In this document: one piece after another, positions 29,301-31,541 of the stretch
Numbering within the stretch: the first letter of the stretch is position 1
Layout of the letters: each line of letters opens with the position of its first letter
Source of the DNA: Flectonema sp. DT1601
Taxonomy: Eukaryota
Direction of reading: 5' to 3'
NCBI GenBank assembly: GCA_964019425.1
Contig: OZ025790.1
Coordinates: 620,001 to 684,000, forward strand
Length of the DNA: 64,000 bases
Position numbers and translations under genes: made by a program
The notes under the pieces: model-generated
The model's database searches: none
Seen by the model: the letters and a program-made list of their open reading frames with translations, nothing else
Told to the model about the DNA's origin: nothing

Positions 29301-31541
29301 TTAGAGCTTTCTGGTTCTGAGGGCCTTCAGAGCCTTGGCAACTTGCTCGCTGCTGCACTCGTTCTCAAAGAAGGTTCCCTGAGCGTCCTGCTCGCACTGG
29401 CCAACTGGCTGGGTGCTGCTGGTGGCGAATCCACTGCAGGTGGTGGAGGTCAGGTAGTCCTTCATCACCAATCCAGCTGAGGTGCAGCTCTCAACCATCG
29501 CGGAACCTCCTCCGGCGGTTGGAAGACACTGGCCAACTGGGAACGAGTGGGACTCACATCCCTGGCTGCATGCTGAGTCGGTGCACTGCTTCTGGGTGAA
29601 TGAACCCGATGGAGGACCTGGTGATGGAGGGGTTGGTGGTGGGGATGGTGGAGTTGGTCCACTTCCCGACACCTCCGAGGTACATGGAGAGTTCTTCAAC
29701 AAGCACTGGTTCGATCCCCTGGACACTCTGATGTATCCGGACTCTCCCCAGCTTGCTCCCCAAGAGTTCTTGATGATCCAGTAGTCAGCACCGTATCCAA
29801 CAATGAGCACTCCGTGGTCGAGTTGCTTGGACTCGCAGTTGGTCATCACTCCTCCGGTGTATGTCTGCCATGAGGTCGCGTCAACGGCAATCGAAAGCGG
29901 TCCGTTGGTTGACACCCAGGTGGCCATCTCGGTTTCGTCGTGTGCGATGTCCTTGTGTCCGCTGATGGTGGTTCCGACAGTCATCGAAGACACGTCCTTG
30001 CAGCTTCCGGAGTCTCCTCCTCCGCTGGTGTATGGGTACGACTCTTCGGTGACAATCTGTCCCTTGTGTGCACTTAACAACCATTCGAAAGCTTGGTCCA
30101 TTAACCCTCCATTGCAGCCATATATAAATGTATTTTCTAGTGCCAAGTAAAAGATGTGGCAATAAACGGATACCGTCCCCCAGGCCGTTCCAGTGGAGCA
30201 CCAGGTTGGCACAGTCGGAGGATGCGGTCCAGGTAGGTTAAGGTGGCTACCACACCCAAAAGTCCACAGCAGAGTAACAAAGTCGTGCTCGGGCCGTAAA
30301 GGCTAGCGGTACGTGTTTTCGCCCGCGACAAGCCGTGTGATTACGGTACAGGACGGGGTCAACCGCACTTAACAGTCGGATTCCATTGGTACAATCAGGA
30401 AGATACCCCTACTCGCATGGAGGAGCAAGCCCCTAAGGAGATATGTGTTTTTCACAACATGACAACACAATTAACAAGAATACAGCACGGGCGTGAGGAA
30501 AAGCCGTAACATGGAAAGTAGGAATAAAAATTAAAAGGTGTGAGGAAGGGTTTCATTCTCCACACTTAATGTGAAGGTGTACCAAGGATTACGCGCATGG
30601 GTTAACCGACACGTGATGAAACCAACGGGCTGGGGAGACAACAAGGGACGGAGCCGAAAACGGCACCCCCCGAAGGGGCACGCCACAAAAGAAAATAAAA
30701 ACCCGGGTGATCTTGTAAGGCTCCAGATCTATAAAGTTCCGGGCCGGTTCACCCCCTCTGGCAGTATGTCGTTGCTGTCGCCTGTTGGTCGTTAGACCGA
30801 AGGAGCTACCGGGAAAATAAAAAGGAAAGTAACAGTCAAAACTTCGAGAGGTGACGCTCCGACCGCGCCCCGAGTTATACCAGAAAACAAAATAAAGGAA
30901 AAAGTTAAACGGGATGCCAGGTTTTGTGCACCTTTTCACCCCCAGTTGGGGGTTACCCCTACATCCCACAGTAGGTAAGGCCCAAACACGCGGTCCTGGC
31001 CCCCGCGGAATGTTAACCCTCCATTGCAGCCAGAATCGGTTTTGTCACATGAAACAAGTTCCTGCTCTGAGACGGATGTCAACTTGTTACCAGCAAGGAA
31101 GTTCTGTCCTTCAATTCCTCCGGTGGTGGAGAACGCCCAGCACGATCCGCACTGAGCCTGGTTCTTCACCTGGGTCACGGCTCCCTTGCTTCTCCAATCA
31201 ACAGCGTCGGCAGCAGCTCTGTTCTGTGACTCACTGAACATCTTGGCTGGGCCAGCCTTGGTAGGAACGTTCAGGCTGTGGTACACTTTGAACTCATCAG
31301 CGCTCAGGTCAGAGTAAACGTTCATTCCGAAGCTCGCTCCAGGGTTTGAAGCCTCCAGCTCAGCTCCCTTCATCATGTTGTTCTTGAAGATCGATCTTCT
31401 CTTCACTTCGTCAGATCCGGAGTACTGCTTTCCGTAGGTCTCCTTGTAGTTGCTCCACAACAGACCCTCGTTCTCCTCAACGTAGCTGAGGGGAAGGGCC
31501 GAGGTGGCCGCGGCCATGGCGAGCATGCAGGCAGTCTTCAT
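29301..31541 (-). CDS. Cathepsin L-like (papain family C1A, cruzipain-type) cysteine protease, copy 1, interrupted by an 892-bp insertion
   Basis: Signal peptide, ERFNIN/GNFD-type propeptide, [29 protein letters not shown], Pro-rich hinge and Cys-rich C-terminal extension. Removing 30121-31032 restores ...[17 protein letters not shown]. Confidence 0.95.
30101..31032. repeat. 20-bp target-site duplication TTAACCCTCCATTGCAGCCA at 30101-30120 and 31013-31032
   Basis: Perfect direct repeat flanking the insertion. The outermost base could be shared by chance with the element's TATATA end. Confidence 0.95.
30121..31012 (-). mobile_element. Non-autonomous, non-coding retroposon-like element (892 bp) inserted at the GCNGGL site
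   Basis: TSD-flanked, no credible ORF, no terminal inverted repeats. GC-rich stem-loop modules are separated by U-rich linkers. The 3' end shares short motifs with the LINE 3' UTR at 34832-34912. Confidence 0.85.

Follow-up and report, generated by a model that had tools for sequence, protein, structure and literature searches.

The 892-nt non-coding insertion found on the minus strand at 30121..31012 of the window (the whole 64-kb stretch of DNA analysed here) is likely to be a SIDE-like non-autonomous partner, copied into one conserved site of a cathepsin L-like gene by the neighbouring APE/RT LINE family. The element is flanked by a duplication of its target, contigs of its empty site exist, and it has both the target boundary and a 3' tail in common with the LINE; it has probably been mobile recently. 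The original prediction had described it as an independent structured RNA that uses the target of the LINE and is mobilised in trans by that LINE. Mobilisation in trans has been upheld by the 20-bp duplication, the empty site (in three runs), the shared covarying tail stem and a variant second copy. The independence of the RNA has not: its 3' end is LINE-derived, its 5' part resembles a broken HDV-like ribozyme of the LINE, and its layout is that of a SIDE. Because of this LINE-like tail, and because only a broken version of the LINE's ribozyme is present, the element is better read as a SIDE-like partner than as an independent RNA.

As in SIDEs, the element is non-coding and short compared with the LINE, its 3' end is homologous to that of the LINE (as judged from two sequences), and both its insertion site and its type of duplication are those of the LINE. 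The term SINE-like does not apply in its strict sense, since a Pol III head (tRNA, 5S, 7SL or snRNA) with an internal promoter was not found. The features of the element, of the interrupted gene and of the LINE given below are on the minus strand, unless otherwise indicated.

Host gene, target site and empty site

The interrupted gene is a cathepsin L-like gene of a marine protist, probably a diplonemid. Its 5' part (31013..31541) encodes the I29 prodomain and the catalytic Cys motif (Pfam I29, Peptidase_C1), and its 3' part (29301..30100) the His/Asn motifs and a DUF3586 extension (Pfam Peptidase_C1, DUF3586). The element lies between two identical 20-bp copies of the target, an upstream one at 31013..31032, made of codons of S-G-C-N-G-G-L, and a downstream one at 30101..30120, and this exact direct repeat confirms the boundaries originally proposed. 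The minus strand carries all the long ORFs of this part of the window. When the host frame is read from its start codon, it continues for 25 codons into the element and then meets a stop that lies between the catalytic Cys and the His/Asn motifs, so that the inserted gene copy would be a null allele. The element itself has no ORF longer than expected by chance, in line with what had been stated, the longest stop-free frame being of 140 codons (a length reached by 87 of 500 shuffles) and the longest ATG frame of 59.

The empty site was searched for in four read runs, X1, X2, X3 (a marine RNA run) and X4, with X5-X9 left out. Contigs skipping exactly 912 nt were found in three of the four (X1, X2 and X3), which establishes the empty site as real; 16-20 letters fit on each side of the joint, and X1 is possibly the source of the window and thus not independent support. 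The contigs of X4 are paralogue-like only. The gaps in the cover of the element (one bin each in X1 and X2, and all of X4) carry no weight, and the depths are not to be equated with copy numbers.

The same joint would be expected from a mobile intron, that is, an element inserted by the LINE and removed from the pre-mRNA, either as a non-canonical euglenozoan intron or by self-splicing, with restoration of the cathepsin. Splicing would give the sequence of the empty site, found also in the RNA run X3, and diplonemids have non-canonical introns, short and with paired ends, as described in the cited part of PMC12621601. Nevertheless, this explanation is highly improbable. GT-AG or GC-AG ends occur in 0 of 21 registers, and canonical splicing that restores the cathepsin mRNA is on these letters excluded; the pairing of the two ends, as in euglenozoan non-canonical introns, is weak in the five of the 21 registers tried (-1.7 to -6.2 kcal/mol); and no group I or group II intron match was found in the element by Rfam. 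Moreover, the joined form occurs in X1 and X2 as well, and paralogues without the element account for it.

The target is common to the element and the LINE, as had been claimed. The 20-bp site recurs as a variant between the LINE pieces B and A (34813-34832), differing from the host copy at two third codon positions, both synonymous, and its 10-mer core has three occurrences in the 64 kb, all of them at element or LINE junctions. Furthermore, contigs of X1 and X2 that span the 3' junction of the element differ from the window at 30117, 30120 and 30156. The first two changes, both synonymous and in third codon positions, convert the repeat into the target variant of the LINE junction, while that at 30156 falls in a predicted hairpin loop; the variant contig of X1 matches the host for 23 nt, followed by 125 unaligned nt. 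The simplest reading is that these contigs come from a diverged paralogue, into which a second insertion was made independently at the same boundary. Specificity for the 20-bp site rests on three junctions, taken from the 64-kb window and the runs.

It could also be argued that the element is not a mobile family at all, being instead a single decayed remnant left by a diverged relative of the LINE, or else a product of rearrangement or assembly at an unstable locus. The neighbouring gene copy and the LINE pieces are indeed heavily rearranged, and no second copy of the element was found within the 64-kb window. Against this stand the clean 20-bp duplication, the variant 3' junction and the body of the element, which is covered by contigs of two further sources and of the environmental RNA run with 0-2 differences per piece; in addition, no coding remnant was found in the element. 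Such an origin is therefore hardly to be credited.

The neighbouring gene is a second cathepsin copy (32173-37486, minus strand), in which LINE piece B, the target and LINE piece A stand in place of the middle part. With the element-bearing copy it shares 100% identity over 289 nt at its 5' end and 97.8% over 179 nt at its 3' end. Near the start of this upstream copy there is a 65-nt piece of LINE ORF2 (37362-37426, 97% identical to 35984-36048), which suggests templated repair or template switching. Elsewhere in the window, a fused DHFR-thymidylate synthase gene is found at 47820-49346 (minus strand), and a long GC-rich array of repeats with a 27-nt period at 57890-64000 (minus strand), which resembles a gene for a glycine/aspartate-rich calcium-binding repeat protein.

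The partner LINE and the common 3' tail

Two pieces of the LINE are present. Piece A includes ORF2 residues 1-330 (32349..33341), with the APE endonuclease (Pfam Exo_endo_phos), and piece B residues 856-1576 (34916..37069), the C-terminal part. Both belong to one family, since the protein P0001 matches A at 99% and B at 96.5%. P0001 is an intact APE + RT protein of 1576 aa, with 12 members at an identity of at least 90%; its only Pfam domains are RVT_1 and Exo_endo_phos, RNase H being absent, and human L1 ORF2 is the solved structure on which its profile has the highest score. The 3' end of B and the 5' end of A meet at the third target copy (34813-34832); as the flanks of the LINE are deleted, its own duplication cannot be seen in full. 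Piece A is rearranged, as an RT fragment (34303-34578; P0001 residues 758-847, 77% identity with gaps) sits inside its 5' region, ahead of the ORF1-like region. The window copy of the LINE has a frameshift near 35252. At the C-terminus of its ORF2 (34916-35350), several Cys/His-rich repeats (C-x-x-H, CC-x-x-HH) are found which have no Pfam match and are a candidate target- or RNA-binding module.

Among the best 12 rows for the LINE protein, the five with named relatives are from Diplonema papillatum. Together with the single orientation of the long ORFs and the fused DHFR-thymidylate synthase gene, this makes a diplonemid the probable source of the window. The search also gave 30 distant loci (24-60% identity), and among these there was no adjoining cathepsin gene, no similarity to the element and no strict HDV-like match; IMG/VR held 0 relatives. 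Two related diplonemid-type LINE proteins, P0004 and P0007, have N-terminal protease-like domains: an OTU domain above the cut-off in P0007, which also has an RNase H-like domain, and a weak Josephin match in P0004.

The element had been thought unrelated to the visible LINE pieces, a view that has to be abandoned, its 3' tail being related to the LINE and its 5' ribozyme relic probably so too. The last ~105 nt of the element can be aligned collinearly with the 79-nt 3' UTR of the LINE (34833..34911, in piece B), and its terminal GGCACT and A/T-rich end (30121..30144) with the last 22 nt of the LINE; no poly(A) tail is present at the 3' end. With cheap gap extension, the tail alignment was equalled by 0 of 1000 shuffles for the last 150 nt and by 2 of 1000 for the whole element, and with ordinary gap costs by 19 and 70 of 1000, respectively. 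The match was reached by 1 of 2000 local shuffles, and the element tail was the best non-self one among 1704 real tiles.

Within this tail, a stem of 10 bp with a CA bulge (30172..30228) is common to the element and the LINE 3' UTR (34852-34897), and it was found unprompted by RNAalifold from the two sequences. Five of its 20 positions differ between element and LINE and all the pairs are kept (20 of 20 cells paired), by two compensatory (double) changes and one consistent (single) change; when five substitutions are placed at random, the 10 pairs all survive in 666 of 200000 trials. For covariation, the shuffle control of the tool (117/500) is not significant, and with two rows it is uninformative. 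As for its folding, the probability of the stem is 0.9-1.0 in folds of the tail only and 0.88 at a pairing span of 100, falling to 0.02-0.05 at spans of 200-300 and to 0.0 in the whole-element ensemble. The tail-motif pattern had 0 matches in JGI metagenomes and 0 in IMG/VR, and the stem was absent from the 30 distant LINE loci (best E 0.66).

Predicted fold, body and 5' part of the element

Every motif that had been quoted is present in the element, and so are the three U-rich linkers (about 30880-30905, 30813-30830 and 30686-30701), with 65, 67 and 81% T. The modules are GC-rich in a relative sense only, with 50.8% GC in the element and about 38% in the neighbouring host DNA. Six of the 11 helices originally listed have a probability of at least 0.8 in the whole-element ensemble, namely the four of the 5' three-way junction, CTCCTTC/GAGGGGG and GGTC/GACC. 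The other five are poorly represented there (0.0-0.16): CCGGT/ACCGG has 0.16, CCCGG/CCGGG and GATCT/AGATC 0.04 each, and both the CCC-TTCG-GGG hairpin and the GGAGCC/GGCTCC loop pairing 0.0, although the nested model cannot score the latter, a pseudoknot, fairly. Two of the five reach ~0.6 at a pairing span of 150-200 nt, and the predicted folds as a whole change with the span. A long irregular duplex of ~50 bp is also predicted (element nt 135-184 with 327-375; pair probabilities 0.91-1.0; matched by 2 of 32 shuffles), which absorbs the CCC-TTCG-GGG hairpin and the GGCTCC partner. Crossing long-range helices (144-156/793-805 and 23-34/718-729) were considered and discarded, their probability in the ensemble being 0.0 and the best of them being matched by 1 of 60 shuffles.

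Folding stability exceeds that of shuffles on the minus strand, as had been anticipated, and the excess is modest (z -1.90, 1/20; z -1.99, 1/40). On the plus strand z is -0.01, and none of 20 minus-strand windows of 120 nt falls below z -1.6. By these models the element would be mildly, not strikingly, more structured than chance. The further claim of more structure than mobilisation needs appears weak, because the excess is of about 2 SD, several of the listed helices are not preferred and no homologue of the body was found. Folding z-scores are in any case a poor judge of pseudoknots, as the LINE's own ribozyme scores +1.0.

The body proper (30232..30835, ~600 nt, non-coding) has several predicted stems and no similarity to 33 LINE proteins (E<0.01), to the rest of the window, to the 30 LINE loci or to Rfam. 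At 30806-30842 (element nt 174-206), a branch-point-like TTGAC, a pyrimidine tract and an AG together resemble a trans-splice acceptor. The absence of tRNA A and B boxes was borne out, with a B box on neither strand, a single A-box-like match on the plus strand only, and 0 tRNAs. The Rfam search that had been recommended gave no match inside the element at E<=5 (seven chance-level matches, all elsewhere). This blank is weak evidence, because Rfam also failed to detect the HDV-like ribozyme of the LINE.

A different origin, in which an independent structured RNA with its own function acquired a LINE tail and was carried along in the manner of a SINE while its body remained under structural selection, would agree with the strand asymmetry of the fold, with the ~50-bp duplex and with a long body that matches nothing tested. 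It would also agree with the occurrence of 202 nt of the body, at about 99% identity, in the marine RNA library (X3), although this contig may be DNA or a simple co-transcript. Considering also that there is neither an Rfam match nor a Pol III head, that the local z-scores are unremarkable, that the folds shift with the pairing span and that the 5' part resembles the LINE's ribozyme, such an RNA is unlikely. A SIDE-like partner remains the preferred reading.

The 5' end of the element is occupied by a folded module (30909..31006, element nt 7-104) made of a closing stem and a three-way junction, with pair probabilities of 0.80-0.94; its z of -2.14 (2/100 shuffles) is that of a hand-picked module, the best of 17. 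A hammerhead was rejected by eye and for want of an Rfam match: GAAA and a UH site are present in the junction, and GGUA stands where the core sequence CUGANGA should be. A twister was likewise ruled out by eye and by Rfam.

A better candidate is provided by the LINE. HDV-like ribozymes have, by consensus, an intact P3 and an L3 of the U-C-C...C-G type able to form P1.1. At the 5' end of LINE piece A (34748..34812), a canonical HDV-like ribozyme is predicted by a strict descriptor, which has one minus-strand match in the 64 kb, this one, and one poorer match on the plus strand. Its predicted fold begins at the first base after the target and has P1, P2, P3, P1.1, a catalytic C in J4/2 and a junction-anchored first nucleotide. 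In the element, the same descriptor gave 0 matches and relaxed versions poor fits only, so that no intact HDV core was detected. A probable relic is nevertheless seen at 30837..30995, by a pattern drawn up after inspection. Its P1 consists of seven Watson-Crick pairs (30995-30989, element nt 18-24, with 30867-30861), and its core (30874-30865, element nt 139-148) is identical to nt 21-30 of the LINE ribozyme, that is, to the end of L3, the 3' strand of P3 and the start of the 3' strand of P1. GG (30860-30859) and CGAA (30846-30843) follow at the expected distances, and P2 has 6 bp (30926-30921, element nt 87-92, with 30842-30837). Where the 5' strand of P3 and the beginning of L3 should be, there is instead a 46-nt U-rich stretch (30875..30920).

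The relic pattern with the LINE core occurred in 0 of 5000 shuffles, and with the loosest core in 25 of 5000. When P2 was required, it was found in 0-1 of 3000 local shuffles, and among 142 real tiles only the LINE tile and the element tile had it. The 10-nt identity alone is not significant (158/1000 shuffles), and the relic starts 17 nt inside the element. These first 17 nt, upstream of the would-be cut, compete successfully against P1, whose probability is 0.95-1.0 only when they are removed. A contig of X2 that ends at element nt 17, next to the relic P1, was dismissed as evidence, its length looking like that of overlapping reads. Taken together, these models lean slightly towards a 5' part that is a decayed ribozyme of the LINE type, whereas an active non-canonical HDV-like ribozyme in the element seems very unlikely.

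A second HDV-like topology, incompatible with the first, was also found (1/3000 global and 1/3000 local shuffles); it is anchored at nt 1, with a 640-nt P4 and a non-canonical core, and as it is equally rare in shuffles it warns against over-fitting. The whole ~900-nt partner RNA of a LINE dedicated to cathepsin homing would then be one large self-cleaving nested double pseudoknot of the HDV type starting at nt 1, with P1 formed by nt 1-7 and 45-51, P2 by nt 23-28 and 696-701, CGAA at 692-695, and the whole 640-nt structured body in the position of P4. If this were true, the element would be cut out of the host's polycistronic mRNA, and the precise 5' junction and the long body would both be explained. 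This large ribozyme, too, is judged very unlikely, and a decayed ribozyme in a SIDE-like partner is preferred.

Proposed mobilisation and relation to known systems

From the anatomy of the element, together with the established biology of R1/R2 and L1, we infer the following steps. The element would be transcribed passively and in the same orientation, inside the polycistronic Pol II transcript of the host gene, and the CA-bulged 3' stem of its RNA would be recognised by the ORF2 protein of the LINE. The APE endonuclease of the LINE would nick the CNGG-encoding site with a stagger of 20 nt, and target-primed reverse transcription would insert the copy. The 5' end may once have been produced by an HDV-like ribozyme like that of the LINE, now broken. 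It is more likely that the 5' junction is made by annealing of read-through host sequence, which, as a proposal, would free the ribozyme to decay. The inserted gene copy, as a null allele, would be tolerated because intact paralogues remain. Finally, the ~600-nt body is most likely filler, accumulated or derived from LINE sequence not seen here, and its folding would serve for packing of the RNA and not make it a separate functional RNA.

If these proposals are true, a LINE and a non-coding partner that use one 20-bp CNGG-encoding protease site, in its synonymous variants alike, would extend the safe harbours of such elements to a family of enzyme genes and would be the first defined LINE-partner pair in diplonemids. 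The pair would moreover offer a minimal 3' recognition stem, as predicted, and an APE endonuclease with a presumably new specificity, of interest for RNA-templated insertion. The mobile elements of diplonemids await rigorous description, according to the cited part of PMC10161547, and no report of a diplonemid or cathepsin-targeting system of LINE and partner was found in the open-access literature (main texts, without supplements).

The known systems are compared here on the basis of parts of the papers cited. Short partners of LINEs in a protein-coding family are known from trypanosomes, with ingi and RIME in the RHS genes (PMC7563717), and the HDV-like ribozymes of trypanosomatids are often decayed in SIDERs (PMC4035085, PMC3185411, PMC12278014). 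The LINEs of the ingi clade encode RNase H (PMC7563717, PMC4035085, PMC3185411, PMC12278014) and P0001 does not. Furthermore, in ingi/RIME and L1Tc/NARTc a 77-nt hallmark is common to the long and short elements, whereas the present element does not carry the 5' end of the LINE as a block: the best local match between it and the first 300 nt of LINE piece A was 10 nt, a comparison made with the local LINE only and not with trypanosome sequences. Unlike that of ingi/RIME, its target lies in a conserved motif of a protease, and 20 bp of it are duplicated. The element is thus not an ingi-clade partner (RIME, NARTc or SIDER).

With LINEs of the Tx1 and R1 clades, the present one has in common the APE endonuclease and a fixed target in a multicopy sequence (PMC4640811), a likeness of features and not a placement by phylogeny. 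The specific targets of non-LTR elements named in the cited part of that paper are rRNA, spliced leader, tRNA and snRNA genes, transposons, microsatellites and telomeres, enzyme genes not being among them. Most of the target-specific non-LTR elements described lie in RNA genes, repeats or other transposons, and the RHS hot spot of trypanosomes is the protein-coding precedent. Like LINE-tailed SINEs and bipartite non-autonomous LINEs (PMC5786205), the element has a LINE-derived 3' tail and an enigmatic middle body; a head from tRNA, 5S or 7SL and Pol III boxes are both missing from it.

The closest likeness is to the SIDEs of R2 and R1, such as R2Dwi_SIDE and those of Drosophila R2, with a 5' part of the ribozyme type, an unalignable middle and a 3' tail conserved in structure (PMC3414825). 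Like these, the element is non-coding and site-specific, lies at the site of its partner LINE, has the three-part layout and would depend on a host co-transcript (PMC3414825). The SIDEs of that source are in 28S rDNA and have active ribozymes, whereas the element is in a protein-coding gene and has no intact ribozyme core; R2Dwi_SIDE is of 529 bp with a 197-bp middle, as against 892 nt with a ~600-nt middle, and no poly(A), in the element (PMC3414825). New here are the host group, the long body and the target, which is a conserved motif of an enzyme in a family of protein-coding genes.
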